Part shown: positions 43,389 through 63,685 of the stretch, in pieces | How positions within the stretch are numbered: the first letter of the stretch is position 1 | Layout: each line of letters begins with the position of its first letter | Origin: an uncultured Desulfobacteraceae bacterium | GTDB taxonomy: Bacteria > Desulfobacterota > Desulfobacteria > Desulfobacterales > UBA11574 | Direction of reading: 5' to 3' | Assembly (NCBI GenBank): GCA_964410925.1 | Contig: CAYPIW010000086.1 | Span: 17,605 to 81,604, forward strand | Length of the DNA stretch: 64,000 bases | The notes under the pieces: model-generated | The model's database searches: none | The model's input: only the letters and a program-made list of their open reading frames with translations | What the model was told of the DNA's origin: nothing | Position numbers and translations under genes: made by a program

Positions 43389-44600
43389 GTGACTGTCAAC
43401 GATACTGCAGGTTTTTTGCAGGAGGCAATAATGGTAAACTTTTTACGGAAAAACCTGTCTTTCCTGGCAAATAACCCAATGTTCAAGGGGTTGTCCAATG
43501 ACCAGCTTGAAGAGGTCATCCAAGTGCTGGAAGAAGTGCATGTCAAGGCAGGAGAAATAATAACTATGGAGGGAAATCCCGCATCAGAACTCTATTTCAT
43601 AAAAAGTGGTACCGCAGAAGTTTTTAAGAAAGAACCCGGGATTGATTATGAACATCGGCTGTCAGCACTGTCACCGGGCGACAGCATCGGTGAAATGCCG
43701 GTTCTGGATTGCAAACCTCGTTCGGCTTCTGTCCGGGCGGTTTCGGATTGTTCCCTTTTACTGCTTAAAAATGACAAACTACAATCCCTTTCAGCGGCCG
43801 AAGAATCCGCCTATTCCAAGATCAAAAGCAATCTGAGTTGTGAAATGAGTGAGCGCTTACGTCAGACCAACGAAATGACGGTACGTTCCTTACGAATACA
43901 GCTGGCCGAAGAAAAATCCAGAGTCTCTATGGGAATTCTCATCTGCATGCTGCTGGTGGGAATATGTTTGTATGTGTTCTCTCTACAGGTTATTGCATCT
44001 TGGGCCAAGGCGGCGTCAACAACTACGGTAGTTAGCGTAAACATTATCTTCCTGTTTGCGGCAATGTCTTTTTTTGTTATTAAAAAAGGTGGTTATCCCT
44101 TTAGTATGTACGGTCTCACTACGGATAACTGGCGCCAATCGGTGATGGAGTCTATTCTGTTTCTGGTCCCTATTCTACTATTCTTATACGTTCTGAAATG
44201 GGTTTACCTGACCCGGCTCTCCGGCATGCAGGAATATCCGTTGATATCCCTGGGACAACATTTAAAACTAAGCAAAATCGGCCTCATCATCACTTGTTTA
44301 GCCTATTCGCTGTTCGCCCCTGTGCAGGAATTTATCGCCAGGGGATGCTTTCAATCTTCCTTTCAAAATTTCCTGACAGGCAAATATAGAACTTTGACTG
44401 CCATTGTTATTTCAAATCTTATGTTCAGTATGACCCATCTTCGCATCTCCATCAGTTTTGCTCTGGTAGCCTTTATTCCCGGACTTTTCTGGGGGTGGCA
44501 ATATGGACGTCATAAAACGCTCATCGGAATTTCAATTTCACATATTATCATCGGCCTATCCGCTTCTATTTTCATTGGGTTCCCGGGAGTTTTATCATAA
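43389..44600 (+). CDS. cyclic-nucleotide-binding domain fused to a CPBP (CAAX/Abi) intramembrane protease domain
   Basis: The cNMP-binding beta-roll is NPASELYFIKSGTAEV...GDSIGEMPVLDCKPRSASVRA. About 6 TM segments follow, with CPBP-like motifs PVQEFIARG, MFSMTHL and ISISHIIIG. An alternative start is MVNFLRK at 43431. Confidence 0.65.
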   Translation: MTVNDTAGFLQEAIMVNFLRKNLSFLANNPMFKGLSNDQLEEVIQVLEEVHVKAGEIITMEGNPASELYFIKSGTAEVFKKEPGIDYEHRLSALSPGDSIGEMPVLDCKPRSASVRAVSDCSLLLLKNDKLQSLSAAEESAYSKIKSNLSCEMSERLRQTNEMTVRSLRIQLAEEKSRVSMGILICMLLVGICLYVFSLQVIASWAKAASTTTVVSVNIIFLFAAMSFFVIKKGGYPFSMYGLTTDNWRQSVMESILFLVPILLFLYVLKWVYLTRLSGMQEYPLISLGQHLKLSKIGLIITCLAYSLFAPVQEFIARGCFQSSFQNFLTGKYRTLTAIVISNLMFSMTHLRISISFALVAFIPGLFWGWQYGRHKTLIGISISHIIIGLSASIFIGFPGVLS

Positions 44601-47056: not shown

Positions 47057-47361
47057 CCTCCCTGGTTGCGGCCTTCTCAACGGTTTCTTATTACGGCAAA
47101 GCTCTGCCAAATATCCTAACCATATATAAAAGAACCTGCTTAAATATGGAAAAAAGTCAAGCGGTTTTGATTAAATTAAACCGGGGGAAAAAATATTTTC
47201 AGGCCACTTGATTACAATTATAAAATGTATTCTTTATTGACGTTTAAATATTAGATGATGTAGATTGTTTTTATGATATCGTGCTGGTATTCATATCGCG
47301 TAATTTGCTGATATCATACTATATTTATACAGAAAATCCTGCAGGAAACAAGGCGTATCAA

Positions 47362-49262: not shown

Positions 49263-50744
49263 TTGTTTGATACTGTTTTTTGGCAAATCCTCATTGCTGT
49301 GGTTTTACTCAGCGGATACGTTATTATATCCAAACGGTTCCGGGAAATACCCGACATTCCCATCGGGCTTATCATCCTTTATCTGATTACACGTATCATC
49401 CTATCGATTACCCGCAATCTGAGATGGACGGCGCATTGGGCACCATGGATTCACCTTGCGTCCTTTGTTATTCTATCCTGGGCAGTCGCCCGGTTAACTT
49501 TTTTTCTTTTTGTCGAGTTGCCTCTCCGCCTGAGAAAAAAAAAAGAGCTTCCCATTATTACCCGTGACCTTATACTCATTACCTGTTATGCAATCCTTTT
49601 TTTTATTGTGCTTCGCTTTAAAAGTAATATTAATCTTACCGGCATACTCACAACCTCAGCGGTTTTGACCGTTGTCGTGGGTTTTGCTGCCCAGACAACA
49701 TTGAGCAGCCTTATTTCCGGTCTTTTGCTGCAAATCGAACGTCCTTTTGCATTGGGAGATTGGATTAAACTTGGGGAAAATTGCGGCCAGGTGATCGGTA
49801 TTACCTGGAAATCCACGCGACTGCTTACCCGTCAAGATGTTTTGGTTTATATCCCCAACGCAGAAATAACCAATAAAAGCTTTTTGAATTATTCGAAACC
49901 CACTCGAAGGATTGTCTCTCGAATGAACATCGGGTTAGAATACGGAGCACCCCCCAACACGGTTCGGAAAGTTGTTTTAGAAATCATAAACCAGCATCCC
50001 CAGGTTTTGGAAATACCTTCGCCGGAAATTTATCTTGTCAGTTTCGATGATTTTGCCATTACCTATGAAATTCGATTTTACCATAATAATTTTGCCGATG
50101 AACGTAGAATCAAGTCCGACATAAATACGAAACTCTGGTATGCGCTTCGTCGCAACAACATCAAAATTCCCTTTCCAATCCGCGATGTTCATCACAGCCA
50201 CATAGAAAGGCGCTTTCATGCCAAAAAATTGGCTGCACAAAGAAGTTCTTTTGATATTGAAGGATTGCTTAAGCGCGTCTCGATTTTTTCATCCCTGTCC
50301 GAAGAACTCCTGACCCGGATCGCAGAACGTTCGGAAATTATCGATTATGGTTCCGGAGAATTCATTGTTCGTCAGGATGATCAAGGAGATTCCCTTTATA
50401 TCATTCGCTCGGGGTTATGCGGGGTTTACATCAGAAAACATGGAAAGCAGGAGAAAAGAATTGCAACCATTGACACCGGCGGATTTTTTGGCGAGATGAG
50501 CCTTTTGACCGGCGAACCGCATACTGCCACGGTACAGGCCGTGGAAGATACCTCGGTTATCATAATTGACAAGGAAAATTTCTCTAATATTTTAACCGAA
50601 AATCCTTCTATTTCTGTCCAGCTGGGTGAGATCCTGGCCGAACGACAGAATGAGCTGGCCGAGGAAGCCGGCCGGATCGTCGCAGCCTCTGCTTCCTCCA
50701 CCAGCATGATTGCCAAAATCAAGTCGTTTTTTCGAATCGACTGA
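49263..50744 (+). CDS. MscS-family mechanosensitive channel with C-terminal cNMP-binding domain
   Basis: TTG start. The MscS core is LSSLISGLLLQIERPFALGDWIKL...VIGITWKSTRL. The cNMP domain is FIVRQDDQGDSLYIIRSG...FFGEMSLLTGEPHTATVQA. Confidence 0.8.
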   Translation: MFDTVFWQILIAVVLLSGYVIISKRFREIPDIPIGLIILYLITRIILSITRNLRWTAHWAPWIHLASFVILSWAVARLTFFLFVELPLRLRKKKELPIITRDLILITCYAILFFIVLRFKSNINLTGILTTSAVLTVVVGFAAQTTLSSLISGLLLQIERPFALGDWIKLGENCGQVIGITWKSTRLLTRQDVLVYIPNAEITNKSFLNYSKPTRRIVSRMNIGLEYGAPPNTVRKVVLEIINQHPQVLEIPSPEIYLVSFDDFAITYEIRFYHNNFADERRIKSDINTKLWYALRRNNIKIPFPIRDVHHSHIERRFHAKKLAAQRSSFDIEGLLKRVSIFSSLSEELLTRIAERSEIIDYGSGEFIVRQDDQGDSLYIIRSGLCGVYIRKHGKQEKRIATIDTGGFFGEMSLLTGEPHTATVQAVEDTSVIIIDKENFSNILTENPSISVQLGEILAERQNELAEEAGRIVAASASSTSMIAKIKSFFRID

Positions 50745-50823: not shown

Positions 50824-51867
50824 ATGACGGATCATCATAACCCCGCATCAAATGTATCTGCGAACCCCACCGACACGCTAAAGACATGTCTTGAAGTTGG
50901 CAAATTATTAACTTCGACGTTGAATCTGCAGGAAATTCTGGAACTGATTATGCTTAAGGTCAGTCAACTCATCAGAGCACAGAACTGGTCGTTACTTTTA
51001 AAAAATGAAGAATCCGGCGAACTGACCTTTGAAATTGTAGTGGGTCTTAAGCAGGAGTTATTTAATGGATTATATCTGTCGCCAGGCGAAGGGATAGCCC
51101 CCCATGTCGCAGAAACCGGCAAAGCAGTATTCATACCGGATGTTAATGATTCCCCCCTGTTCAACAGAAAGGTTGATCTTCATACCGGCTTTATCACCCG
51201 GTCGGTAATTTGTCTGCCACTTATTTTCCGTGGAAAGAGTCTGGGAGTTATTGAAATCGTCAATGTCAGGGACATGAAGATTTTTGAATTAGAGGATTTC
51301 CCCATTTTAACCATCCTCACGGATTATGCGGCAATCGCAATCGAAAATTCCCGGTATGTCGATAAAATCAGGAAAATGAGTATAATGGATGAGTATACAG
51401 GCCTGTATAACTCCCGTTTTCTCCACCAGATATTAGATGAATTTTTCAGTAAAACAGATCAAAAAACACAACTTTCCGTCGTTTTTATGGACATTGATAA
51501 TTTTAAATCCATTGTGGACAAATACGGCCATCTCCTTGGAACCAAATTATTAAAAGAAATCGGTATAACCATCACAAGCAATCTTTGGAAAGAGGATATT
51601 CTGATAAAATACGGCGGGGATGAATATATAATCATCCTTCCCGGCAGAAGTAAACCCGAGGCGGTAAAACACTGTGAAAACATCCTCTTTGCGATCAACG
51701 AGTCAACCTATCTGAAATCAGAAGCAGAGCCCGCCAGAATTACGGCAAGTTTTGGAATTGCAACTTATCCCGAGGATGCAGAGACCAAAAAGGAGGTATT
51801 GATTTTAGCCGATAATGCTTTATTTAAAATTAAAAACTCAACAAAAAACAGTGTGGGTACGGCCTAA
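50824..51867 (+). CDS. GAF-GGDEF diguanylate cyclase-like protein
   Basis: GAF domain followed by a GGDEF domain (DEYTGLYNSRF, FMDIDNFKSIVDKYGH). The active-site motif reads GGDEY rather than GGDEF. Confidence 0.8.
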   Translation: MTDHHNPASNVSANPTDTLKTCLEVGKLLTSTLNLQEILELIMLKVSQLIRAQNWSLLLKNEESGELTFEIVVGLKQELFNGLYLSPGEGIAPHVAETGKAVFIPDVNDSPLFNRKVDLHTGFITRSVICLPLIFRGKSLGVIEIVNVRDMKIFELEDFPILTILTDYAAIAIENSRYVDKIRKMSIMDEYTGLYNSRFLHQILDEFFSKTDQKTQLSVVFMDIDNFKSIVDKYGHLLGTKLLKEIGITITSNLWKEDILIKYGGDEYIIILPGRSKPEAVKHCENILFAINESTYLKSEAEPARITASFGIATYPEDAETKKEVLILADNALFKIKNSTKNSVGTA

Positions 51868-51915
51868 ATCTGGGAGGAATGATCGATTTGACACAATACA
51901 ATAGAAGGAAAACCC

Positions 51916-52251
51916 ATGTTTAAGTTTTATTCCAAATTGTGGCGCGGTGAACTGAAACTGGCGCATACGTTCTGGATAGCGAATGTTGCGGTATGGCTCG
52001 CATGCATGTTTTTCTTTCATCTATGATCCAAGGTTCTCAGTATGAGCTCAGGCCCTGTGGTGGGCATGCCTCTCGGCCTGATATTTGTCATCTATAATGC
52101 GGTGGCCCTGTCCGGAGTGATCCGCAGTTCCTGCAAAGGCGGCACAAAAAAAATCTATGGGTTCTTTACAATTCTTATTTCATTTTTGCTCTTAATACTC
52201 TCATTGTGGGTCCCGATTTATTTTTACGGAAAACCGCTGATCCGTCTTTAG
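51916..52251 (+). CDS. small membrane protein interrupted by an in-frame TGA (36 aa + 69 aa)
   Basis: The ATG at 51916 has an AAGGA ribosome-binding site. A TGA lies at 52024-52026. ORF 52042..52251 is in the same frame, and both halves are hydrophobic. Confidence 0.35.
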
Positions 52252-52752
52252 GGAACTGGAAATGCCGTGACTCATTGGATTCACTATAAACCTGATCATC
52301 TGAATTTTCCACGAGGCCCTAACCCCCGGCTCGTCCGTTTTTACTTACTTTGCTCCAGATGACAACTGAAACAGGGATAAGTAGAATTAACATGAGTATC
52401 CAGAAACAGGCCATGATTTCCTGTGGAAGAAATCTGTGGCCCGCCATGGACTCATAGACCCACTGCGAGATGGCAGGCAGGGCTGCTTTTCCATTCCTGA
52501 CGTGGGCATAGAAATGAGTGAGAAGGATATCCAGGAGTGACCTCATGAAAAAAAGAGGGATGAAAGAAATCAGAATGCAATAGAGATTATTTTATTGGAC
52601 AAGCTTGTAACCGCCTGTTATGAATAATATAAGGTGGAAAATAAATCCTTATATATACTTTCTCGGCAAAAACTCAAACAGGCGAGAAGTTGCCACCTGC
52701 AAGCTTTTTTACAACTCATTTACAATGATGCAACAGGCGGGTTTTATTACAG

Positions 52753-53958
52753 ATGAAATATTTCATTCTAATCGTTTTGTGTTTGGTGCCTTTTGGCTGT
52801 GGCCCTACATACAGACAAATTACATCCGACCCACCCGGTGCAAGCATTTATTTTGGCCGGTCAGAGGATAAATTGAAAAGAACTGCTTATGGACTGACTC
52901 CTTATAGTCATAGCGATTTCGGGTTCTTAGCCGAAGGATACTTTCAGGTGCGAAAAGACGGCTATCATGATTCAGAGCTACAATACTGTCCAGGAGGTCC
53001 AGGGAACTTCCGGTATCATTTCACGCTAGAGCCAGAGAATGCAAGTCAAACAGAAGTGGTTTCTTCCAGCAACGGTGCGGTTTTGATTGAGCCTTCTCCT
53101 CAAACACAATCCACAGACAATTTAAGGATTTCTAAAATAGAAAAAGAGTTACAGCCCATGTATTTACAGTCTCAGAAGTGGGCGGTTATCATCGGAATTT
53201 CGGAGTACAAGTATGCAGGCCGGAATGATTTGACCCATCTGATCTTTGCAGATGATGATGCGAAGGCGTTTGCGCGCCTGCTCAGAAATCTGGGATGGAA
53301 CCAAGGTCATATGAGACTGCTGGTCAATGAGGAGGCGACCCAGAGAAACATAATTATAGCTCTGGAATCATGGCTCACGAAGGCTGGCTCTGATGACCAG
53401 GTGGTGCTGTTTTGGTCCGGACATGGTTTTCCTGACCCGGAGGATCCGGAAAAAGTCTATTTTGTATGTTATGATACTGACATCTCAATTCCTGCTACCG
53501 GTTATAGAATGGACAGAGTCAGGGATGCTCTGGAAGAGAGAAGGACTCGAAACGTGGTTGTTTTTGCCGATACCTGTCATGCGGGTAAACTCATCACCCG
53601 TGGGGAAAAGGGTATATCAATTATGCCAAAGATAGATCAAATGAGTCGGGAGAACAGAATTCCGAAGGGTTGGATTTTTATGGCAGGAGCTGATACTGAC
53701 CGAAAAGCGTTTGAGCATACTTCCTGGAGAAATGGAGCCTTCACGCATTGTTTGTTGAACGCCCTCTCCGGAAAAGCTGACGGCTATATGAGTTCAGGAG
53801 CAAAAGATGGAATTGTCACAATGGGAGAGCTGCGCGCGTATATGAACAGTGTAATGCCCGATGAGACTCAGAAAGTCATCGGAGTGGCCAAAAGGCCGGT
53901 CATCAGCACAAGCACGGGGGATCCTGAAATCTGGAAGCTGTCGTTGCAAGACAAATAG
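52753..53958 (+). CDS. lipoprotein with PEGA-like domain and caspase-fold (C14) domain
   Basis: Lipobox LVPFGC and a PEGA-like ITSDPPGASIYFG...GLTPY. The caspase contexts are WAVIIGISEY, LFWSGHGFP and FADTCHAGK. Confidence 0.75.
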   Translation: MKYFILIVLCLVPFGCGPTYRQITSDPPGASIYFGRSEDKLKRTAYGLTPYSHSDFGFLAEGYFQVRKDGYHDSELQYCPGGPGNFRYHFTLEPENASQTEVVSSSNGAVLIEPSPQTQSTDNLRISKIEKELQPMYLQSQKWAVIIGISEYKYAGRNDLTHLIFADDDAKAFARLLRNLGWNQGHMRLLVNEEATQRNIIIALESWLTKAGSDDQVVLFWSGHGFPDPEDPEKVYFVCYDTDISIPATGYRMDRVRDALEERRTRNVVVFADTCHAGKLITRGEKGISIMPKIDQMSRENRIPKGWIFMAGADTDRKAFEHTSWRNGAFTHCLLNALSGKADGYMSSGAKDGIVTMGELRAYMNSVMPDETQKVIGVAKRPVISTSTGDPEIWKLSLQDK

Positions 53959-54153
53959 GGCCCCGTCGCCATTGAAAAAATGATATCCCCGTAATTTTTA
54001 AGATCTGTCTGGTGGATTCCGACGAAAAATTCATAACCGATAATGATAATGTATATTTTACCGCATATATGTGAGCTATACGATTCATATATGGGATCAA
54101 AGCTGTACCAGCATGACCAAAATTGAAGATTTCTAAAAAGAATGCCTCAATAC

Positions 54154-55572
54154 TTAGGGGCTTCTTCGGGTGATGATAAAACAGGTGTCAGAAACATGAG
54201 ATCCCGTGTCATCCGTAGAAGTATCTCCGGTAAACTTTGCCACTCCAATTCCTCTACTTTGGATCGCTTCACGGACACTTCTGGTAACTTTTTGATAGTA
54301 CTGGCCACTGGCGGCAGCCTCACGTAGACTTTCCTCGATGTCGGCAAACTGGCTTGTCGAGGCAACCACCGTGACAATATCTTTGCCATAGGGTGTTTGT
54401 GCCACAAGCTCCCCCATTTTGCCGATAATCGACGGTTTCCCGGCTTTAATAAAATTGTTTCGATCATGAAGATTGGGAAACAGCAGGGTATTCATCCGGG
54501 TCTCACCGGCGCCCTCATCACTGATGGAAGAAAGATAGATAACTTTAACGTAGCAATCTCTTGATCCATGGACACGGAACCGGATGCATTCCCCATCATA
54601 ATAAACTGCACCCTGGCCCTTGAGGGGAGTAATTCCAACAGTAAATTCCGGATTCATGCTTTGGTTCCTCACATCATCCTGGGTCAGGGCCAGAAAATGA
54701 TCTCCCTGTATATTGTTGGAAATTTTAGCGAATAATTCCTGAAGAGCTTTACTTTGAGACATTAGAGCTTCCATCTGGGAACTGCCGGCGGATTCTTTGA
54801 AAAGATCTTGCAGCGCTTCATTTTTACGCATCAGTGCTTCCATCTTTTCATTCTGATCGCGAAGCATCTGTTCCTGTTTATTCCACTGATTCCCGAGTTT
54901 TGTAATTTCACTTTTTATGCCGGCATACTCCACTTGGGTCTGATCACCCGCTGAACCCACCTTCTGGCTAATGGTTTTCAACAGTTTTTCAAAATTATTC
55001 ATCCTTTTTTGATAGAACTGCATCTGCTGATTGAGGACGGCGGTCATTTTCTTTATTCCGGCAACGATTTCCCGTTGATTATTTTCCAGTCGATTGACCA
55101 CCTCATTAACAAAATTCTGCTGTTTGGCCTGCCTGTCCGCTTTTGCCTTGTCAATCACCACCATTACCCAGTAAACGCTGTTTTGGGGATCAGCCCAATT
55201 TTGCTTTTCCCGGATACCGGAAAACACTTTGCGCGATTCGACAAAAAGGGACGACGCCACTTCCTGTTCCGAATATTGCCCTTTCTGGGATAGATTTTCC
55301 TTTAATTCGGATTTAACGGACACCGAGAGCTGATAACAGAGTTCATCCAAGGCGCGGTCTTTGGATAGTTTTCTACTATCATAATTCGGTTGATCACCTA
55401 TAAAATCTGCTGACCCCACGCCGTAATAAACTCCCGTCAAATGAAGGGTTCCATCATGATACGCCTGCAGCCATTGAGGATAATTTGAGGAATACCCCAT
55501 ACCCGGAATGACCAGCAAAAGCCATAGGGCCGCTGCCATCCGGAAAATCCGGGAAGTATCTTTTTTTATCAT
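54154..55572 (-). CDS. exported LPP20-like / coiled-coil / DUF4384-like protein
   Basis: Signal peptide and an N-terminal LPP20-like region (YYGVGSADF...DRALDELCYQLSVSV). A Q/N/K-rich coiled coil follows. The C-terminal block IRFRVHGSRDCYVKVIYLS...LLFPN...GKDIVTVVAS is DUF4384-like. Confidence 0.55.
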   Translation of the reverse strand: MIKKDTSRIFRMAAALWLLLVIPGMGYSSNYPQWLQAYHDGTLHLTGVYYGVGSADFIGDQPNYDSRKLSKDRALDELCYQLSVSVKSELKENLSQKGQYSEQEVASSLFVESRKVFSGIREKQNWADPQNSVYWVMVVIDKAKADRQAKQQNFVNEVVNRLENNQREIVAGIKKMTAVLNQQMQFYQKRMNNFEKLLKTISQKVGSAGDQTQVEYAGIKSEITKLGNQWNKQEQMLRDQNEKMEALMRKNEALQDLFKESAGSSQMEALMSQSKALQELFAKISNNIQGDHFLALTQDDVRNQSMNPEFTVGITPLKGQGAVYYDGECIRFRVHGSRDCYVKVIYLSSISDEGAGETRMNTLLFPNLHDRNNFIKAGKPSIIGKMGELVAQTPYGKDIVTVVASTSQFADIEESLREAAASGQYYQKVTRSVREAIQSRGIGVAKFTGDTSTDDTGSHVSDTCFIITRRSP

Positions 55573-55589
55573 GCAGCCTCCTCATCTTT

Positions 55590-58166
55590 TTATTTTTCGT
55601 GAAGCAGGTTTAGAAACTGCCGGGCATCCTTATTGTCCGGCTCACGATGCAGGACCTCTTTATATATGATTTCCGCTTTTGACGGCTGACCGGACAGATA
55701 GAAAGCAGAACCCAGATGTAACAGATATTGTGAGTTATCAGGATCAAGCTTCGTAGCCCGGTGATAGTTGAAAATAGCCTTTTTCAATTGGCCGGTTTCA
55801 AGATAACAAAAGCCAAGCCAGAAGCGTGCTTCGGCCTCCCGTGATTTCTCTTCTTTTGCGATGTTTAAAAGTTTAATTGCTTTAGGGTAATCCTTTTCCC
55901 GTACTGCCGAGACCCCCTGGATAAAGGCATCCAGAGTAGATTTTATGTCGGCTTTAAGTGTATCCGGTTGAGTTGCAGTGGATTTTTGTTCGGTTGTTGC
56001 AGCCTCCACTTTTCCCGAAGCAGGGGGTTGTGCCGCAAGGGTAGAAATTATCAGGCTTTTTTCATTTTTTGATGCGGATTCAGTTAATGGGGAAATTGCG
56101 ACCGTCTGATTCTGACCTTGATAATCTTCCGAAGTCAGGATTGTGATATGGGCTGTTTTATGCCCCGGATGCGAACTGAAAATACGAACATCCCGGGGAT
56201 TACCAAAATAGTTCAAATCGATTTTCAATGATAAAAGGTCCATATTCTTTGATACGATTCCATTTTTCAGGTTACCAATGATCTGGTTCCCGCCGATCAG
56301 TGCAGGCGCCTGATCCAAAAAAACGCCATTTTGGTTATAGCTGATGTCATTTTTAAGCACTTTGGCCGGAGAGCGAACAAGCTTTATGCCGGTAACCGAG
56401 TTATAGGCGATCCGGCAGCCTGTGATACGCGCTTTAGCCATATCCACCGCCTCAATTCCATTGGTTTTATTTCGGTAAATGGTCAGATCATTCAAATGCG
56501 GAGCTGCGTTGCTGCCTTCAATCCGTATTCCGGTAATGCACTCTTTTACCGTACCACCGGATATTTCCGGAGAGCTTTCGATAATTCGAAAGCCGATCTC
56601 GGAACCGTGCACTTCAAAATGAGACAGCCGGCATTTCTCCGAAGACCTTTCGAAAATGATTCCCCCCCAGTTTTGGTCTTTATCCGCCGCTAAAAAAAGC
56701 ACAGGCGCATTTTTTTCCCCGCTGACATCCAATGTCCCCCGGAGAATCAAACGGGACTTTGGGTCAGCCTGGACCATTACTCCCGGGTGTATGGTAAGTA
56801 TGGAACCCGCCGGGACAATGACATCACCTTTCAAACAGTAGGGATTGGCACCGGAATGCCACACCGAATCCTCAGCAAGACTTCCTTGAACCGGTGTAGG
56901 ACCCGGCGGCACAGGAGTAGCGGGAATACCCACATTCGTCTGACTGTTGTTTCCGGCTAGGTCGGCCGCAATAACCCGGTAAAAATAACGGGTATAATTC
57001 TCCAGGTCTTTATCTTCAAAACGCGTAAATTCAGTGGTATGAATTTTTTCATATCCGGAAAGCGGGGTAATGCTCCGCCATATGCTGTAGCCGGCAACAT
57101 CGGCTGCAGTAGATTTGTTCCACCGAAGAACTATTTTTTGGCTGCCCGCTATGGTTTGCAGACCGGTAGGAGGGTCCGGCGGAGCTCCGTCGACATTTAC
57201 GAACCCCAGAGTGTCTTCCCATCTGCAAACATTATTCCAGTCGTCTGACAGCCGAACCACAATCACTGCGTCACTAAAGGTATCATTATGCCGGACAAGA
57301 CAGGAGCCGATATAAGTTCCCGGAGTTTTTTCCTGCATTTCAACAGCAGTTTTCCAGGGGGCAATGCTAAAAGTCGCTTTCAATCCGGCAGTGCCTTCAA
57401 TACCCACCTGAAGGCGCTCTCCCTTTCCAAGAGTTCGGTTCATGCCGTCATGGACCAAATTGGATATTTTGGGAAAGGATTTGCCCTTTAGGTTAGCGGA
57501 AGGCGGAATTGTCTCCACCGCAGCCTGGCAAAGTTTATTGATTGTGGTAATAATGTGGTACCTGGACAGATCAAGTGCACTGGAAGCCGCCGCAATAATA
57601 GCCCCAATGGGAGTTGTCGGAATGCTGCCGCTTCTTTGAATCTCCTTGTGTTTTACGGACCACAGCACCCGCCGGGTTTCTGCATCAATCATTTTAACCT
57701 CAACCGCAACGGTAAAAGAAGAGTAAATCCCCGCATAATAAGATTTAAATTCCGTTATCCGGCCAATGATCAGTGCGTCGGAGGCAAGGAGTTCTCCGGT
57801 TTTCGCAGGATCGATATTTTCAAAAATATTTTGCGGGTTAAAATTTTTCAGATTGGCATTTATGGCGCTCAGTTCGATATCCTTATAAGCCAGGGAACTG
57901 AAATTATTGTAAAACAGGCGTTGCAAAAGAACAGATGCTTCCTTTTCTTGGGTCAGGTTTTCAAAAGGAAGGATGGCCACAGACAAGGGCCGGTCTTTAT
58001 TATAATCCGGGGCAACAAATATATTTTCAACAGGGATTTTACGCTCAAGTGCCCCCTGAACGCGATCTATTTGTTCACTCAACCTGCTGCCCAGGCAGGC
58101 AAACAGCAAAAAACAGATACTGATTGAAAATACAGCTGTCAGAATCAGTTTGCAGAAGGATTTCAT
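55590..58166 (-). CDS. multidomain lipoprotein: DUF799-like + FN3 + right-handed beta-helix (PbH1/NosD-like) + TPR
   Basis: The start is set at MKSFCK with lipobox LLFAC. The DUF799-like region is VAILPFENLT...IIGRITEF. The FN3 domain is PPTGLQTIAGSQKIVLRWN...YFYRVIAADLAGN. Repeated NGI/TGI beta-helix turns follow, then C-terminal TPRs. Confidence 0.65.
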   Translation of the reverse strand: MKSFCKLILTAVFSISICFLLFACLGSRLSEQIDRVQGALERKIPVENIFVAPDYNKDRPLSVAILPFENLTQEKEASVLLQRLFYNNFSSLAYKDIELSAINANLKNFNPQNIFENIDPAKTGELLASDALIIGRITEFKSYYAGIYSSFTVAVEVKMIDAETRRVLWSVKHKEIQRSGSIPTTPIGAIIAAASSALDLSRYHIITTINKLCQAAVETIPPSANLKGKSFPKISNLVHDGMNRTLGKGERLQVGIEGTAGLKATFSIAPWKTAVEMQEKTPGTYIGSCLVRHNDTFSDAVIVVRLSDDWNNVCRWEDTLGFVNVDGAPPDPPTGLQTIAGSQKIVLRWNKSTAADVAGYSIWRSITPLSGYEKIHTTEFTRFEDKDLENYTRYFYRVIAADLAGNNSQTNVGIPATPVPPGPTPVQGSLAEDSVWHSGANPYCLKGDVIVPAGSILTIHPGVMVQADPKSRLILRGTLDVSGEKNAPVLFLAADKDQNWGGIIFERSSEKCRLSHFEVHGSEIGFRIIESSPEISGGTVKECITGIRIEGSNAAPHLNDLTIYRNKTNGIEAVDMAKARITGCRIAYNSVTGIKLVRSPAKVLKNDISYNQNGVFLDQAPALIGGNQIIGNLKNGIVSKNMDLLSLKIDLNYFGNPRDVRIFSSHPGHKTAHITILTSEDYQGQNQTVAISPLTESASKNEKSLIISTLAAQPPASGKVEAATTEQKSTATQPDTLKADIKSTLDAFIQGVSAVREKDYPKAIKLLNIAKEEKSREAEARFWLGFCYLETGQLKKAIFNYHRATKLDPDNSQYLLHLGSAFYLSGQPSKAEIIYKEVLHREPDNKDARQFLNLLHEK

Positions 58167-58248
58167 CCCATAACCAGTGAATGTTAATTGATTCAGACTC
58201 GCAACAACCACATCCATGCCTGCAAATTTGTTCAGTTATCGGCAGGGA

Positions 58249-59067
58249 CTAGCGTGCCGGAGTCGGCATTCGAGCCAGGGCATAAAAACATTTGCCGGCA
58301 TGGCTATAGGCATGCCGGCAAATGGCAGCACCTGTTAGAACAACTTCAGCCGTGGTCTCAGAAAGGTTTTGAGACATGGAGCCGGTATTTTTAGAACTTG
58401 TTTTTTGAAGGACATTGTATCGGGCCGAAAGCTTAAAGGCCAGGTCGGCTCTGGCCTGACGCTCGGCTTCCTGCCAGGCCTCACCCGGTTTAATATAACT
58501 TGGAGCAGTGCCGATCCCGTATACATATTCAGCAGGTGATTTCGGTTCTTTGACCCATTCAGGAGGCTCATCAGAGTTTATATCGACCAGACGGTTATCA
58601 ATTTTATTTATCATTTGTTGTAGCAAAGATCCATCCGGACAGATTGCACAAAGAGCGATAACCCCACTTCCCAAACGATATTCGTGAACAATCTGAAGAT
58701 GTTTTTCCAATTGGGATGCCCGATCCTGCCATCCGTTTTCTATCACATAGGATGCTGTCAGACTTTGGCTATGGGTTTGGGTGCCGGCCCATGCCGCTTT
58801 AATAAAAACTTTTTGGTTTTTCGCCATATTCGCGGCACCGCTTTTCACAAGCATTTCTTTCTGGCATTTTTGGTCAAGATATATTCCACTGTACCCATAA
58901 GCAAACCGGCACCCATTAACATTGGGCTGTTCAGCATACCATCCGGGTACCATCAAGATTCCAGACAGATTTGATTTCTCGATTGGTCGCGTAAGGTCCT
59001 GCCGGGGACTTTGACAGGAAATCAGGGATATTATCAATGCAACTGAAAAAAGGACCCGCAGGGTCAT
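58249..59067 (-). CDS. LPP20-family lipoprotein
   Basis: The start is set at MTLRVLFSVALIISLISCQ (lipobox). The LPP20-like C-terminal region is PPEWVKEPKSPAEYVYGIGTA...AERQARADLAFKL. Confidence 0.55.
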   Translation of the reverse strand: MTLRVLFSVALIISLISCQSPRQDLTRPIEKSNLSGILMVPGWYAEQPNVNGCRFAYGYSGIYLDQKCQKEMLVKSGAANMAKNQKVFIKAAWAGTQTHSQSLTASYVIENGWQDRASQLEKHLQIVHEYRLGSGVIALCAICPDGSLLQQMINKIDNRLVDINSDEPPEWVKEPKSPAEYVYGIGTAPSYIKPGEAWQEAERQARADLAFKLSARYNVLQKTSSKNTGSMSQNLSETTAEVVLTGAAICRHAYSHAGKCFYALARMPTPAR

Positions 59068-59352
59068 GCAGTGGTGGCATCCTCTAATCTTTACAAATTG
59101 CCGATAGCAACTATATTTTTTAACTGTCATCGGATATTTAAATGGGTCTCTGTACACAAAGCCGACCCTGGGAGATTGATCAAACGTTAGTTCTATGCAT
59201 CTGGAAATCTGCTGTTCAGACTTTCCTGTAAGAAGTGCAACAGGCAAAACTTTTAAATTAGGGTGCCCGTTCATTTTATTCAATGAATCATACGGGCACC
59301 CTACCCTGAAAGCGATTTGCATAGAACTGTGAAAAGAACTCCGGTAATGAGT

Positions 59353-59949
59353 CTATTCTTCGGTAAAATCGAGTTTGTCGAGTTCTTTTTGTAACTCGTC
59401 AAAGCCTTGTTTTGCTTTGAATTCATTATAAAGGGCTTGCTCATTTTTAACCAGCTTTTTGGTCTGATCGTCGATTTGCTTTTTAAGTGCCTCTGCATTT
59501 TCTATGGGCCATAGAGCTAAGCTGTGCCAGGTGCCGTCCGGACATACTTCACGCTTTACGATTTTGCAGCCGTAAAGAACATGGGAAGCAATCGCTTTGC
59601 TTACCGACTCAGAGAACTGGAGCGCCTGGGCTCCTTCTCCAATGCCGGACTGCTGCATAAAGTCTTTCATCATGGTTTGAACTTTGACCCGGATGGCCAT
59701 AACCACTTCATCCCGGGCCCGCTGGTCAGCCGTTTTCTTTGAAAGGGCCGCCATTTGCATTTTGGCGAGCCCGCTTCCGTAAATACCGTCTTCAGCGGAA
59801 GGCGGATTTTTTTCCCATTCCGGGATACACTGAGCCTGTTCGGCAGGCCCTGCAGGACGAGGCTCCGGGGCTGTTGCACAGGCCATAATTAAAAAACAGC
59901 CCATAATAATAATTCCCAATACCAAAGTCCTTTTTTTTCCGTTCATCAT
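59353..59949 (-). CDS. LPP20-family lipoprotein
   Basis: 198 aa with lipobox IMACAT and PEWEKNPPSAEDGIYGSGLAK...ADQRARDEVVMAIRVKV. Confidence 0.6.
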   Translation of the reverse strand: MMNGKKRTLVLGIIIMGCFLIMACATAPEPRPAGPAEQAQCIPEWEKNPPSAEDGIYGSGLAKMQMAALSKKTADQRARDEVVMAIRVKVQTMMKDFMQQSGIGEGAQALQFSESVSKAIASHVLYGCKIVKREVCPDGTWHSLALWPIENAEALKKQIDDQTKKLVKNEQALYNEFKAKQGFDELQKELDKLDFTEE

Positions 59950-60010
59950 TTACGTCTCCTTTTTATCTTCTGGTTAACAGGTTAAACTAAAATAAAAATT
60001 TATCACATAT

Positions 60011-61147
60011 TCAGAGACCACGATAAATTTTAGATCGACTGAACACTCTCTGAATATAGTCCTGGGTTTCCTTATACGGAAGTTTTTTTCTCAGGGCCAT
60101 ATGAATATCCTCCGTAGTCATGCTTTGGGCTTTTTTCACTGCCGGTTTCAGATTGGTTTTTCCGGTGAGTGCCCTTGCAACATTGCCAGCTCCGGTGTTA
60201 TAGGCTGCAACCGTCAGTAAATAGGCAATCCCCGGGTTTTCAATTCCTGCGAAATACACATTTTTCGTCAGGTCCAAATAGGCCACTCCCAAATTGATAT
60301 TGTTTTCTGGATTGTACAGAAATTCGGCTGAAGGTTTCTTATCCTCATTATAAAGATGCTTATACGCATCCCGTCCGCCTGAGACGGGGACAAGTTGCAT
60401 TAAGCCATAGGCAGGAACGTGGGAACGGGCCATGGGATTAAAATATGACTCGGTATGAATGAGGCCGAATACAATACTGGGATCTATGTTCCGTTGTTTG
60501 CAATATTTAAGGACGATGGGTTTATATCGGTCAGCACGAATTTTCAGGTGCTCCGGCACCATCTGGACTTCAACGGATACGACTCTTTTGGGCGGTGCGG
60601 ACGGTTGAGGTATGAGTTTTGAAGATGTTTTCAACTTTTCTTTAAGACGCTCTTGGACAAATTTATCAACGTTTTCCGGGGAGAGGTCTTTTTTACCGTC
60701 AACAGAAATCTGACCGGTAAGCAGATTTTTGCCTGTGGGCCAGCGGTCCGACATCATGCGTTTGAGTTGGCGTTTAATTTTTTCACTGGCTGCCTGTCGC
60801 GGATTTTTTTCATTCTCCGGGATAAGGACTTCAAGGGAAATCTTGCCTGATTTAAAATCAACCTGGCTTCGACTTTCTTTATCGGCCCCGTAATCAACCC
60901 AGACCTTTTTGCTGGAACCGATAAACTCTCCCCACTTGGATCTCACTTCGGCCTGATAGGCGGCGTAATCCTTTTCCTGTTCGTCGATGAAAGAGCTGAA
61001 TTGCTCCTTTTCTTGTTTAACAAAAGACTGGAAATCCTCATCGGAAGCAAAAATTGGATTGGCAACCGCCAAAAACAGGAAACAGGATAGAATTGTGAAA
61101 AGAACATCTTTTATGCTGCGCATGGTGCCCTCCCGGTATTTTTTCAT
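60011..61147 (-). CDS. membrane-bound lytic murein transglycosylase (MltC-like)
   Basis: Signal peptide with an MltC-type N-terminal domain. The SLT catalytic region is GLIHTESYFNPMARSHVPAYGLMQLVP...AAYNTGAGNV. Confidence 0.75.
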   Translation of the reverse strand: MKKYREGTMRSIKDVLFTILSCFLFLAVANPIFASDEDFQSFVKQEKEQFSSFIDEQEKDYAAYQAEVRSKWGEFIGSSKKVWVDYGADKESRSQVDFKSGKISLEVLIPENEKNPRQAASEKIKRQLKRMMSDRWPTGKNLLTGQISVDGKKDLSPENVDKFVQERLKEKLKTSSKLIPQPSAPPKRVVSVEVQMVPEHLKIRADRYKPIVLKYCKQRNIDPSIVFGLIHTESYFNPMARSHVPAYGLMQLVPVSGGRDAYKHLYNEDKKPSAEFLYNPENNINLGVAYLDLTKNVYFAGIENPGIAYLLTVAAYNTGAGNVARALTGKTNLKPAVKKAQSMTTEDIHMALRKKLPYKETQDYIQRVFSRSKIYRGL

Positions 61148-61477
61148 AACTTAATGCATTATAGGAGATCAATCTAACTGTCAAAACAGCGACCCGGCAA
61201 ACGTAGATTAAAATTCATATTTCCCGGACAATACAACCAAAGCTTTTTTGAAATCAAGTGCATATACGATGCAACCATCTTGCATTCAAATTTTCAATAT
61301 GCTAAGTGTAGTTATTGTTATTATAGGTGATTTCATTCTTAACCGGATGATATCAATGTATATATTAAGTTTTAGTAAAAAATGTCAACATTAATTCATT
61401 CTTCCAAGGACTCCCTTTGATTCGCACAGATTTGCAGAACTTAAAGGCGATTGTGATGGTAACGAGTTCTGCGAGCT

Positions 61478-63685
61478 ATGATCGGAAGGCTCATGATTTT
61501 CCAGAATTTTTTTACAAGATTTAGATCATCATTTCCCGAACAATATAAAAAATGGTATTCAGGATTGGCAGTTGCTTTCCTGATCTCCTTTTTGATTGTA
61601 ATCTTGCAGCGGTTTTCCTTTATGCAAATTCTGGAGGCCAAAACTCTTGATTCCAGATTCTCAATAAATGATCCCCCTGAACAAGTATCCGAGGATATCA
61701 TTCTGGTGGGAATAGATGATTCGAGTCTGAAATATTTTTCCGACAACGGCATTTCCTGGCCCTGGCCAAGGGATTTTTATGCACACCTTTTAGGCTATTT
61801 AACGGATTCGGGCGTAAAATCCGTAATTTTTGATCTTTTATTTTACCAGCCGGATATCGATCGGGGTGAATCTGATGCAACCGAAACAGATAAAGCCTTT
61901 GCCGGTGCCATTCACGCAAACGGCACCGTCGTCCTGGCAAGCCAACTCACCCAAGAGAACCTTGGGTCTCACTTCGATCTTTCAAGATTCTATCTCCATC
62001 TCAACAAAAAAGATAGCATCACCTTGAACCCCTATAATGGCATTCTTGCTCCAATAGAATCCTTTCTCCATGCGACTCGCCATTTGGGTATCGTGAATGT
62101 GGAACCTGATGCGGACGGGATTATCCGGCGGGTCCCTTTAATATATCCGTTCAATGGCCGTTTTCTGCCGCAGATAGCGGTTAGCGCGTTTCTGTCTTCC
62201 AAAAATAAACCGGTTCCTTTGCGACTGTCATCAAAATATCTGGATATCGGCCAAACACAAGTCCCCCTCGACAATGCCGGTAACTATCTTATTCACTGGT
62301 ATGGTCGCCAAAGCACCTGCCAATTCATCCGATGTGTTCCTCTCGCGGCGGTGATTCAGTCGGCCTCTGCCGTTCAGGCGGGGGTAACGCCACAGCTTTT
62401 ACCGAATGTTTTCAAGAACAAATTCGTTATTATCGGTGTGACCGCTGCGGGGCTTATGGATTTAAAGTCCACACCTGTCTCAGACATTCATCCGGGCATG
62501 GAAATATGGGCCACAATTCTCCTCAACCTGATACGGAACGATTTTGTTAAGCACAGCAGCTTACTTCTGAACTCGTTACGGGTAATGATCGTCACTTTTG
62601 GTGTATTCCTGCTTATCACAAAAATTCCCGGCATTGCATCCCATGTTCTGGTTCTTCTCATGACGCTCCTGGTTGGGGTTGAAACGGTTTGGGCGTGGCG
62701 GTTTCATCGGCTGGCCTTAAGCTTCACCATGCCCATATGCGGGTTAATGGTATCCTATTTAGCCCATACGTCCCTTGGGTATTTCATTGAAGGGCAGGCA
62801 AAAAGAAAAATAAGCAAGGCCATGACTCGCTATCTTCACCCGGACATTGTGCAACAAATTGCACGCGACCCGGAACAGGTTAAAATGGGTGGGCAGGAGG
62901 TGGAAGCAACAGTGATGTTTTCAGATATATACGATTTTACGACTATTTCAGAAAACTTTTCGCCACATGAGCTTGTTGCCCACCTGAACCGTTATTTTTC
63001 CGATATCAGCAGCTTTATTCTTGACCACGGCGGCATGCTGGACAAATATACCGGTGACGGAATTATGGCCATTTTTGGAGCGCCGCTTCCAAGGGAGGAT
63101 CATGCCCTTCTGGCATGCCGCGCGGCACTTGCCCATAGGAATTTTAGCAGTAAACTGGGTAGCGGAAAGGAGTTGTCCGTCTCGGATCGGTTCCACAGTC
63201 GCACTCGACTCGGAATCCATTCCGGCAATATCGTTGCCGGAAATATTGGGTCCGAACGGCGAATGGACTATACCGCAATCGGAGATACCGTAAACCTGTC
63301 CGCCCGGCTGGAAGGAGTTAACAAAATTTACAAAACCAAAATCATTCTCAGCCATGCCACCTATAAACGGATTAAAAATGAGTTCATTTGCAGGGAATTG
63401 GATTTTTTGAAGGTAAAAGGGAAAACAACCCCCACCCGGATTTACGAATTAATCGCAAATCGGGAATTTTCAGACCCTGAGCAGTTTCAATGGATAGCAA
63501 ACTATCACGAGGCCCTTTCCCTCTATCGTCAGGGAAACTGGGGAAAGGCCGGCACCCTTTTTGAATCACTGGTCCATTCGGCCTGTCCCGATCCGGCCAG
63601 TGTGGTAATGTTGGAGCGTTGCGGGCATTTAATTAAAAATCCGCCCCGGCACTGGGATGGAATTATAAAGCTTGAGGTGAAATAA
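61478..63685 (+). CDS. CHASE2-sensor class III adenylate/guanylate cyclase
   Basis: The CHASE2 region is IILVGIDDSSLKYF...WPWPRDFYAHLL...IFDLLFYQPD. TM segments follow, then the cyclase core ATVMFSDIYDFTTISE...KYTGDGIMAIFGAP...GDTVNLSARLEG. Confidence 0.85.
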   Translation: MIGRLMIFQNFFTRFRSSFPEQYKKWYSGLAVAFLISFLIVILQRFSFMQILEAKTLDSRFSINDPPEQVSEDIILVGIDDSSLKYFSDNGISWPWPRDFYAHLLGYLTDSGVKSVIFDLLFYQPDIDRGESDATETDKAFAGAIHANGTVVLASQLTQENLGSHFDLSRFYLHLNKKDSITLNPYNGILAPIESFLHATRHLGIVNVEPDADGIIRRVPLIYPFNGRFLPQIAVSAFLSSKNKPVPLRLSSKYLDIGQTQVPLDNAGNYLIHWYGRQSTCQFIRCVPLAAVIQSASAVQAGVTPQLLPNVFKNKFVIIGVTAAGLMDLKSTPVSDIHPGMEIWATILLNLIRNDFVKHSSLLLNSLRVMIVTFGVFLLITKIPGIASHVLVLLMTLLVGVETVWAWRFHRLALSFTMPICGLMVSYLAHTSLGYFIEGQAKRKISKAMTRYLHPDIVQQIARDPEQVKMGGQEVEATVMFSDIYDFTTISENFSPHELVAHLNRYFSDISSFILDHGGMLDKYTGDGIMAIFGAPLPREDHALLACRAALAHRNFSSKLGSGKELSVSDRFHSRTRLGIHSGNIVAGNIGSERRMDYTAIGDTVNLSARLEGVNKIYKTKIILSHATYKRIKNEFICRELDFLKVKGKTTPTRIYELIANREFSDPEQFQWIANYHEALSLYRQGNWGKAGTLFESLVHSACPDPASVVMLERCGHLIKNPPRHWDGIIKLEVK

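Follow-up and report, generated by a model that had tools for sequence, protein, structure and literature searches.

What might be built in the cell envelope by a compact set of five genes that encode a peptidoglycan-cutting enzyme, three lipoproteins, and a secreted stalk protein? This question is raised by a 64,000-nt stretch of DNA, hereafter the window, from an uncultured Desulfobacteraceae bacterium (assembly GCA_964410925.1, contig CAYPIW010000086.1, positions 17,605 to 81,604 of the forward strand). A first-pass annotation had placed five envelope genes together on the minus strand, and the listing of open reading frames (ORFs) bears this out, with five minus-strand ORFs (g1 to g5) spanning 54154-61147 and a base composition without a break. 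They encode an MltC-like transglycosylase (g1), two lipoproteins of LPP20 type (g2 and g3), a giant lipoprotein with a GNA1162-like (DUF799) domain (g4), and a DUF4384 stalk protein (g5). We tentatively read the block as a Desulfobacterales-specific version of an outer-membrane lipoprotein module of LPP20 and GNA1162/DUF799 proteins, which may serve as a periplasmic platform for docking caspases, and we consider this reading somewhat short of probable. To our knowledge, LPP20/GNA1162-type clusters, exported orthocaspases, and the CHASE2 sensor domain are all widespread, and we know of no molecular function assigned to them. The locus and its relatives tie LPP20/GNA1162 lipoproteins, exported caspases, and CHASE2 together by conserved adjacency and domain fusion.

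Conservation of the five-gene block

The block is conserved across relatives, as the first-pass annotation had expected. The order of the five genes is kept in loci whose g4 products share 86, 84, 74, and 49% identity with that of the window. The loci L032/L033 and L009 (both 86%), L002 (identical to L012; 74%), and L003/L004 (49%) carry all five genes in the same order, and L011 (84%) keeps this order up to g2, where it is cut by the end of the contig. All named relatives are metagenome-assembled genomes (MAGs) of uncultured Desulfobacterales, ‘Deltaproteobacteria’, or Thermodesulfobacteriota.

At 28-32% identity of g4, the module is reshuffled (L008, L005/L006, L007, L035-L039, and L045) and consists of a giant and a DUF4384 protein together with ~300-aa LPP20-like partners, to which some loci add a caspase, an MltC-like gene, or a fusion of a CHASE2 sensor to a nucleotidyl cyclase (CHASE2-cyclase). 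The distant giants retain the GNA1162-like, Ig, and beta-helix core. The gene string of L008 (32%) has an MltC-like gene at the edge of the locus, followed by MlaEFD, a TPR protein, and a short LPP20-like/DUF4384 protein, and continues with three ~300-aa LPP20-like proteins and a separately encoded TPR lipoprotein; then comes the giant, with a CHASE2-cyclase immediately downstream of it. Three LPP20-like genes, the giant, and then a CHASE2-cyclase are found in L037 (30%), while L005/L006 (28%, Thermodesulfovibrio-like) encodes a CsgG protein together with two LPP20-like proteins, one of which is a short LPP20-like/DUF4384 protein, and has a caspase lipoprotein gene immediately upstream of the giant. 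A caspase is also directly upstream of the giant in L039. The cultured Thermodesulfovibrio aggregans has a g4 homologue at 28% identity, and metagenomic contigs that encode this same protein again have a caspase lipoprotein gene immediately upstream of the giant one. In L007 (31%, Hydrogenophilales), the LPP20-like partner is divergent from the giant; for want of a Pfam GNA1162 match, this locus had been set down as free of the module, which was overturned when custom hidden Markov models (HMMs) found the GNA1162-like, Ig, and beta-helix domains and the LPP20-like partner. Generic single-domain GNA1162-like loci, as seen in a metagenome scan, have heterogeneous neighborhoods, in which the custom LPP20 HMMs matched nothing.

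The ~300-aa proteins encoded next to the distant giants form a family in which the N-domain is LPP20-like and the C-terminal domain, with the motif GLIVDARGLG.KPA, is unassigned. Members are found in L008 (5806-6669, 8047-9006, and 9019-9972), L005 (2068-2976), and L007 (8771-9721), with further loci in L035, L037, L038, L046, and L054. The window has no member of this family.

The stalk protein and its caspase neighbors

The gene g5 (54154..55572, minus strand) encodes a secreted, non-lipidated protein of 472 aa. Its domains, delimited by Pfam and an AlphaFold2 (AF2) model, are an Lpp20/Tip-alpha-like head (55123-55491), a coiled-coil stalk of ~165 residues (~54655-55149), and a DUF4384 beta-sandwich (54337-54660), all on the minus strand, and the C-terminus bears a conserved DTCFI motif. 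Of the earlier description as an LPP20/DUF4384 protein, DUF4384 (PF14326) is upheld by profile at 42.9-44.1 bits against a threshold of 27, while the N-terminal LPP20 is sub-threshold by profile (14 bits, E = 0.066) and is recognized by fold. The AF2 model (predicted local distance difference test, pLDDT, of 71) has a beta-alpha-beta-beta head, a coiled coil, and a DUF4384 sandwich (pLDDT 80-93), and its best Foldseek matches in the PDB are Tip-alpha (2wcr; E = 3e-4, probability 1.0) and HP1454 (4kzs), which are structural homologues of Lpp20 in published work. The head in the g5 model has the SHS2-like fold expected of LPP20, but g5 has no conserved Cys and is thus not an LPP20 lipoprotein. 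FlgP, Lpp20, and FlgT belong to one SHS2-like family, whose ring-forming members tend to carry an insert that follows the SHS2 helix and precedes strand 2 (PMC12222027). The g5 model has a low-confidence insert at this position, which holds the invariant residues S107, S108, and L109 and would fit an oligomerization element, without being proof of one. A search of the PDB with the g5 profile returned only coiled-coil noise.

The g5 family extends beyond the block and mostly occurs without g1 to g4, which the first-pass annotation did not point out. It comprises at least 165 clusters at 90% identity, and 17 representatives at 50% identity have E ≤ 1e-30; weaker matches mostly cover the DUF4384 region alone. 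An identical copy of g5 lies on a sediment metagenome contig from the Joint Genome Institute (JGI 3300001533). Compared to L002, the coiled coil of g5 has a 23-residue insertion (residues 249-271, ~54760-54830) that would extend the stalk and resembles a partial duplication (MEALMRKNEALQDLF / MEALMSQSKALQELF); judged by protein length (470-483 versus 447-452 aa), about 7 homologues would share it. The MAG Zod_Metabat.1361 has two g5-family genes on separate contigs (L016 and L020), and paralogous copies can therefore coexist.

Convergent to g5 is a gene for a 401-aa Peptidase_C14 lipoprotein (52753..53958, plus strand; Pfam 66 bits), previously described as a PEGA-caspase lipoprotein. Its caspase domain, lipobox (FGC), and orientation are as described, but the PEGA domain reaches only a sub-threshold 12 bits. 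The protein scores 86 bits against the NCBIfam model caspase_w_EACC1, which is below the cutoff. The translation contains the SGHG and DTCHAG motifs of the His/Cys dyad, suggesting that the enzyme is probably active, and it is likely a functional partner of g5. The hint that DUF4384 is often found with caspases was right, and it was underplayed. When ORFs were clustered around 23 non-redundant g5-family loci, 22 of which could be assessed for caspases, exported caspase-domain proteins (domains confirmed by Pfam) were the commonest neighbor family. A caspase gene is the first or second neighbor of the g5 homologue in 10 of the 22 loci, on the strand of g5 in all except the window and downstream of it in all except one. 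Against a background of ~1 caspase per 85 kb in the same flanks, the rough binomial P is 1e-6 to 1e-8, or 4e-4 to 3e-3 if the adjacency is counted as six independent arrangements only.

The g5-adjacent caspases have at least six differing, non-orthologous architectures, including caspase-PEGA-FGE-sulfatase (L015 and L016), signal-peptide or membrane-anchored WD40-caspase (L002, L010, and L025), caspase-Lcl_C (L031), other exported caspases (L023 and L024), and the caspase lipoprotein of the window with its weak PEGA-like N-domain. In L011, a WD40 gene lies beside the g5 homologue and the contig ends before any caspase domain. All inspected caspases have a signal peptide, a lipobox, or an N-terminal membrane anchor. 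The window itself contains three Peptidase_C14 genes within 14 kb (40034-41761, plus; 45503-47110, minus; 52753-53958, plus), and their products are exported, as each has a Sec signal peptide or lipobox. Moreover, the window retains a 75-aa, internally deleted remnant (52319..52546, minus strand) of a 171-aa membrane protein, the intact form of which is encoded between g5 and the signal-peptide WD40-caspase gene in L002, L010, and L011. Since the remnant is kept and the WD40-caspase is gone, the ‘caspase slot’ beside g5 was refilled by a different caspase on the opposite strand. Published reports describe fusions of DUF4384 to domains of proteases and orthocaspases, and orthocaspase surveys list CHASE2, WD40, and FGE-sulfatase as accessory domains.

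The giant lipoprotein

The gene g4 (55590..58166, minus strand, within an ORF extending to 58217) encodes an 858-aa lipoprotein with the lipobox LFAC. This length follows from the start at 58166 and agrees with homologues of mostly 857 aa, and the lipobox residue C24 is invariant. Pfam, the AF2 model, and custom HMMs place, on the minus strand, a GNA1162/PelC-like domain (57507-58034), an Ig-like domain (57177-57503), an FN3-like domain (56946-57176), a right-handed beta-helix (56097-56879), and a low-complexity linker followed by TPR (55608-55916). The first-pass annotation had proposed a DUF799-FN3-beta-helix-TPR giant. Three of these parts hold: GNA1162-like/DUF799 (PF05643) scores 34.8-36.4 bits against 25.9 over residues 54-191, and Beta_helix/NosD and TPR are above the Pfam thresholds. 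The fn3 match, on the other hand, is below threshold (18-20 bits against 25), and the Ig-like domain between the GNA1162-like and FN3 domains is an addition to that architecture.

The AF2 model of residues 1-345 (pLDDT 81) consists of an alpha/beta lipoprotein domain followed by a beta-sandwich. The top Foldseek match of the N-domain is GNA1162 (4hrv_B; E = 2.5e-9) with a template modeling score (TM-score) of 0.75 on the target side, and other matches include the Vibrio LPHT ring (8z5n), FlgT (3w1e), CsgG (4uv2), and TolB (all at probability ~1.0). Comparison with the PelC dodecamers (5t10, 5t11, and 5t0z) and PelBC (9h80) gave a probability of 1.0 and TM-scores of 0.57-0.77 on the target side. 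The likeness to CsgG is at the level of fold only, as the CsgG profile scores 14.3 bits against a threshold of 20.8. A sequence search of the PDB with the beta-helix found no match among solved structures, and TPR proteins dominate the results when the g4 profile is searched against the PDB. The family comprises 46 full-length relatives of at least 49% identity with the same architecture, and 10 more full-length relatives at 26-35%.

The LPP20 lipoproteins and the transglycosylase

The two genes between g1 and g4 had been annotated as LPP20 lipoproteins, which is marginally supported for g2 and supported for one half of g3. The gene g2 (59353..59949, minus strand) encodes a 198-aa lipoprotein with the lipobox IMAC and a C-terminal helical tail, and passes the LPP20 profile (PF02169/IPR024952) marginally at 27.1 bits against a threshold of 25.9. 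The gene g3 (58249..59067, minus strand) encodes a 272-aa lipoprotein with a conserved lipobox (LISC). Its whole ORF has no LPP20 match, but the isolated C-terminal half (58264-58575) scores 32 bits, and several homologues in this family of 73 clusters carry a precomputed PF02169 match. In addition, hhalign aligns g2 to the C-terminal domain of g3 with 62% probability. The N-terminal half of g3 (58588-58965) has no relative by Pfam or hhalign and resembles LPP20 by eye only. Across the block, none of the LPP20, DUF799, and DUF4384 assignments was rejected when profile and fold are both considered, with the LPP20 of g5 falling short by profile. None of the five products matches DUF4810.

The gene g1 (60011..61147, minus strand) encodes a secreted, MltC-like family-1 lytic transglycosylase with MltC_N (~60530-60967, 33 bits) and SLT (~60152-60508, 75 bits) domains, both above the Pfam thresholds, and its translation contains the catalytic TES and AYNTG motifs. 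It is the best-conserved gene of the block (59-90% identity), and L008, where the giant shares only 32% identity, has an MltC-like gene at its edge as well. An MltC-like transglycosylase at the front of the block, as earlier proposed, is therefore found by domain profile and is kept in the clade of the window, but the protein does not belong to the NCBIfam MltC equivalog (NF008670; 169 bits, cutoff 375) and lacks the lipid anchor. A signal-peptidase-I site is predicted at IFA|SDEDF. Because this is an ordinary signal peptide and the Cys of the leader is not conserved, being missing in the L002 and L003 homologues, g1 is predicted to be soluble in the periplasm, unlike Escherichia coli MltC.

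Gene starts, spacing, and RNA hairpins

Export signals were read directly from the sequence. The claim that all products are exported or lipidated holds in that all five are extracytoplasmic, as periplasmic proteins or lipoproteins, judging from their leaders; lipidation is limited to g2, g3, and g4, whose lipobox Cys is conserved in 5 of 5 sequences, in 69 of 70, and invariantly, respectively. The leaders of g1 and g5 appear to be of the signal-peptidase-I type rather than those of lipoproteins.

The previously reported gaps of 17-61 nt apply to the longest ORFs only. Lipobox positions, Shine-Dalgarno sites, and homologue lengths favor starts at 61123 for g1, 59067 (or 59130) for g3, and 58166 for g4, with which the gaps from g1 to g5 become 61, 222-285, 82, and 17 nt, so that g2 and g3 are separated by 222-285 nt and not by 30. 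The second Met of g1 (61123) is preceded by the Shine-Dalgarno sequence GGGAGGG and the Met of g3 at 59067 by GAGGA. The longest-ORF start of g3 (59322, 357 aa) was rejected because the conserved lipobox Cys would be buried ~100 residues inside the protein, at residue 103, and because the ORF would run through a conserved hairpin. The g4-g5 spacing (17 nt or an overlap) is kept among relatives, and the counterparts of the g2-g3 gap in L002 and L003 span 345 and 261 nt, respectively.

The hairpin in the g2-g3 spacer (59258..59307, on the operon strand, minus) was identified by folding and conservation. Folding of 59245-59320 gives a minimum free energy of -30.5 kcal/mol (z = -5.8), and a stem-loop is kept in four relatives (L009, L011, L002, and L003, the last with a hairpin of other sequence), with a compensatory change of C:G to U:A at one pair. 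It has no Rfam match and may be an RNA element that acts within the operon in attenuation, processing, or transcript stability. A terminator-like hairpin also occurs inside the 3′ coding end of g3 (58289-58324, minus strand), ~40 nt before the stop, and has a 14-bp stem with 8 G-C pairs followed by a T run; the peptide that it encodes is not conserved in L002 and L003. A scan of the locus for consensus promoters and terminators gave only background levels, Rfam had no match in 51800-61600, and Tandem Repeats Finder returned nothing relevant at the locus.

Flanking signaling and transport genes

Divergent from the block, across a shared 330-nt promoter region, lies a gene for a CHASE2 sensor fused to a class III nucleotidyl cyclase (61478..63685, plus strand; CHASE2 171 bits, Guanylate_cyc 84 bits). 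The CHASE2-cyclase occupies the same divergent position in L002, L003, L009, and L032 and is present in the loci with the five-gene order wherever the flank is present. It also comes immediately after the giant gene in L008 and L037. The adjacency occurs in three different gene arrangements, and the CHASE2-cyclase is a conserved partner of the g1-g5 block, one that the first-pass annotation had overlooked.

On the other side of the block are genes for an MscS-type channel with a cyclic nucleotide monophosphate (cNMP)-binding domain (49263-50744, plus strand), supported by a 79%-identical homologue in L002 and cNMP-binding hits in PADLOC, and for a GAF-GGDEF protein identified by Pfam (50824-51867, plus strand). 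The channel is also present in L002, L003, and L010 and the GAF-GGDEF protein in L002, and it is uncertain whether they belong to the block. Farther away is a gene for a cNMP-binding protein fused to an Rce1-like CAAX protease (43389-44600, plus strand). Cyclic-nucleotide genes are thus dense around the block (43389-44600, 49263-50744, 50824-51867, and 61478-63685, all on the plus strand), and the cyclase and cNMP-binding domain have domain-level Pycsar matches in PADLOC. With PADLOC-DB 2.0, g1 to g5 had no match and their neighbors only generic caspase, cyclase, and cNMP-domain matches.

An M48-SH3 protease is encoded on the divergent side in L002, L032, L003, and L009, followed by MlaE/F/D genes in L002 and L032. 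MlaE/MlaF/MlaD-type transporters are located at 1-2906 in L002, 496-3192 in L032, and 944-4681 in L008, where they are part of the gene string of the giant itself. A TPR protein of ~300 aa follows the Mla genes in L002 and L008. The Mla genes of the source genome would lie past the end of the window at 64000.

Possible function of the block

From the domain identities, export signals, synteny, and neighborhood statistics, we infer oligomerization, docking, and signaling as follows. The products of g2 and g3 and the N-domain of g4 would oligomerize into a ring or disk platform on the periplasmic face of the outer membrane, which is proposed because solved proteins with these folds (PelC, CsgG, FlgP, and FlgT) form rings. 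The transglycosylase g1 would open the peptidoglycan locally and set the platform into the sacculus, into or through which the long arm of g4 (Ig, FN3, beta-helix, and TPR) could reach and bind glycan or partner proteins. The head of g5 might dock on the platform and present DUF4384 at the end of the coiled-coil stalk, where it may act as a handle for secreted caspase-type proteases, be it as tether, regulator, or substrate. The divergent CHASE2-cyclase could read out or control the platform via a cyclic nucleotide. The output is likely to be envelope-associated proteolytic signaling or remodeling and not a secretion channel. Neither an integral inner-membrane protein nor an outer-membrane beta-barrel is among the products of the conserved block, and the earlier suggestion of an envelope-spanning system is unsupported because every product is periplasmic or a lipoprotein. 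A more specific form of the platform, in which a lipoprotein ring set in peptidoglycan holds exported caspases on DUF4384 stalks and is coupled to the CHASE2 cyclase and to effectors gated by cNMP, serving to sense envelope damage or in developmental proteolysis, is quite improbable. If true, it would be an extracytoplasmic analogue of caspase-activation platforms and provide the CHASE2 sensor domain, an orphan so far, with a first candidate for its input.

Several points weigh against the platform. It is deduced from gene comparisons among uncultured organisms and from single-chain models, and the LPP20 evidence is marginal in g2 and sub-threshold in the head of g5, with the N-terminal half of g3 free of relatives. 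In L003 and L009, the 8-10 kb around g5 contain no caspase gene. Furthermore, g5 may be functionally tied to caspases and only loosely to the lipoproteins, because most g5-family loci (L013-L031, 43-50% identity) have no g1 to g4 nearby. Conserved strand and order and the g4-g5 gap of 17 nt or an overlap are indirect signs of co-transcription, but the 222-285 nt g2-g3 spacer with its strong hairpin and the terminator-like hairpin in the 3′ end of g3 leave room for more than one transcription unit within g1 to g5. Finally, the combination of a beta-helix, TPR, and a PelC-like domain is also a signature of polysaccharide export accessories.

This signature is the basis of a rather unlikely alternative, in which the block is an accessory for exopolysaccharide export or modification: a PelC-like g4 ring would be the funnel, the beta-helix would bind or modify the polymer (as in AlgG or a NosD-like CASH domain), TPR would scaffold a porin or synthase encoded elsewhere, g1 would make the passage, and the cyclic-nucleotide and GGDEF neighbors would regulate the matrix. 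PelC and PelBC are indeed among the best fold matches of g4, which also has Beta_helix, NosD, and TPR matches; the neighbors include GAF-GGDEF and CHASE2-cyclase genes, and the CsgG-like/GNA1162 cluster of Acinetobacter baumannii affects poly-N-acetylglucosamine (PNAG), Cup pili, and biofilm. However, the conserved neighborhoods examined contain no glycosyltransferase, synthase, Wza/PelB/AlgE-type barrel, or polymer-modifying enzyme, the g4 beta-helix has no sequence relative among solved enzymes, and the recurrent links to caspases and DUF4384 are left unexplained. These links are central to another explanation, caspase-centered envelope surveillance, conflict, or programmed death, in which the platform would sense a breach by phage, predator, or toxin, periplasmic caspases would be activated, and the CHASE2-cyclase would trigger cNMP-gated effectors such as the MscS-cNMP channel. 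We regard it as unlikely. It would account for the three exported caspase genes in the window, for the swapping of non-orthologous caspases beside g5, for the caspase/WD40/FGE-sulfatase/CHASE2/DUF4384 network known from orthocaspase surveys, and for the conserved cyclase and cNMP-binding channel nearby, with PycC-like and effector-like PADLOC matches at the domain level only. Yet the cyclase and cNMP matches are generic, g1 to g5 have no PADLOC match, L003 and L009 lack a caspase near g5, and the vertical conservation and stable synteny differ from the patchy, mobile pattern of defense islands.

A role in peptidoglycan remodeling or outer-membrane homeostasis, with the LpoB/TolB-N-like domain and the LPP20 partners positioning and regulating g1 together with M48-SH3 and MlaFED during growth or division, is decidedly improbable. 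TolB among the g4 fold matches, the rank of g1 as the best-conserved gene, and the conserved M48-SH3 (L002, L032, L003, and L009) and MlaEFD (L002, L032, and L008) genes are consistent with it, but the giants of L005 and L007 (28-31%) occur without a transglycosylase and Mla, the narrow taxonomic range speaks against a core growth function, and DUF4384, the coiled coil, and the caspases would have no explanation. Accessory disk genes of Campylobacterota are often unlinked to flagellar operons, and the block could likewise encode a periplasmic disk or collar for a flagellar motor or pilus encoded elsewhere, similar to FlgP/FlgQ/PflA/PflB or FlgO/FlgP/FlgT. We consider this very improbable even though FlgT and the Vibrio LPHT ring are among the top fold matches of g4 and LPP20 is the fold of FlgP, as the match is at fold level only, no neighborhood examined has a flagellar or pilus gene, and the partners are instead caspases, a CHASE2-cyclase, and Mla. 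A double LPP20 in g3, if it holds, would be a counterpart of FlgQ, which looks like a repeat of two FlgP protomers (PMC12222027). It is hardly credible that the block is no functional unit at all and that five unrelated envelope genes stay together by recent common ancestry. Full five-gene synteny is limited to one order-level group of uncultured MAGs and the g2-g3 spacer is long, but in other phyla the same domain set recurs, at 28-32% identity, in different orders and fusions, and the 17-nt gap or overlap of g4 and g5 is kept, so that this explanation is already disfavored.

The caspase-docking platform leads to testable hypotheses, namely that DUF4384 is a caspase handle, that the lipoproteins form a PelC/FlgP-like ring, and that CHASE2 is the readout of the platform. 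Should these readings fail, the locus would simply be a further lineage-specific envelope operon.

Comparison with known systems

One of the closest known systems is the CsgG-like/DUF4810/GNA1162 cluster (Neisseria meningitidis GNA1162, 4HRV; A. baumannii D1G37_12595-12605), a three-gene cluster that is needed for PNAG, Cup pili, and biofilm in A. baumannii. It shares the GNA1162-like lipoprotein domain with g4, and both systems have further small outer-membrane lipoproteins. However, GNA1162 in that cluster is a single-domain protein of ~190 aa, in contrast to the 858-aa Ig/FN3/beta-helix/TPR fusion of g4, and the g1-g5 block has no DUF4810 and no CsgG-type channel protein. The partners of g4 are instead LPP20-type proteins, an MltC-like enzyme, the DUF4384 stalk protein, caspases, and a CHASE2-cyclase. 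Curli genes (csgA/B/E/F) are likewise not present. PelC (5T10, 5T11, 5T0Z, and 9H80) has in common with g4 the lipoprotein fold, the outer-membrane anchor, and an association with TPR, which is on the same chain in g4 and on PelB in the Pel system; neither pelA-G genes nor a PelB TPR-porin are found in the window or the related loci examined.

The FlgP/FlgQ basal disk of Campylobacter and the FlgO/FlgP/FlgT H/T-ring of Vibrio (3W1E and 8Z5N) share SHS2/LPP20 lipoproteins, a FlgT-like domain, and TPR scaffolds with the block. These rings are periplasmic, lie beneath the outer membrane, and have a dedicated transglycosylase. The likeness is at the fold level only, no motor has known caspase, DUF4384, or CHASE2 partners, and the neighborhoods examined contain no flagellar genes. 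In the Helicobacter pylori lpp20 operon (Lpp20/HP1456, HP1454, and HP1457), several LPP20-fold proteins are encoded side by side, as here, and HP1454 is a secreted multi-domain protein with an Lpp20-like first domain, as is g5, in which the downstream domains differ (coiled coil and DUF4384). That operon is not known to include a GNA1162-like giant, a transglycosylase, or a caspase. E. coli MltC has the MltC_N (DUF3393) and SLT architecture of g1 but is lipid-anchored, whereas g1 is secreted via a signal-peptidase-I leader and heads a lipoprotein operon.

A full-text literature search for LPP20 and DUF799 together returned no papers, and none was found that links orthocaspases to LPP20 or GNA1162 lipoproteins. 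Searches for the GNA1162-Ig-FN3-beta-helix-TPR fusion or its LPP20 partners, and for the LPP20-head/coiled-coil/DUF4384 family or its tie to exported caspases and CHASE2-cyclases, also found none. Orthocaspases and metacaspases share with the locus the domain network of DUF4384, WD40, FGE-sulfatase, and CHASE2, but DUF4384 of g5 is on a separate, non-catalytic stalk protein beside the caspase rather than fused to it, and the partners are all exported. The locus therefore shares one defining domain with the GNA1162 cluster and folds with PelC, CsgG, FlgP/FlgT, and Lpp20/HP1454, while departing from each of them in context or architecture. The link between caspases, DUF4384, lipoproteins, and CHASE2, as drawn from comparative genomics, is a genuine lead on three orphan families.

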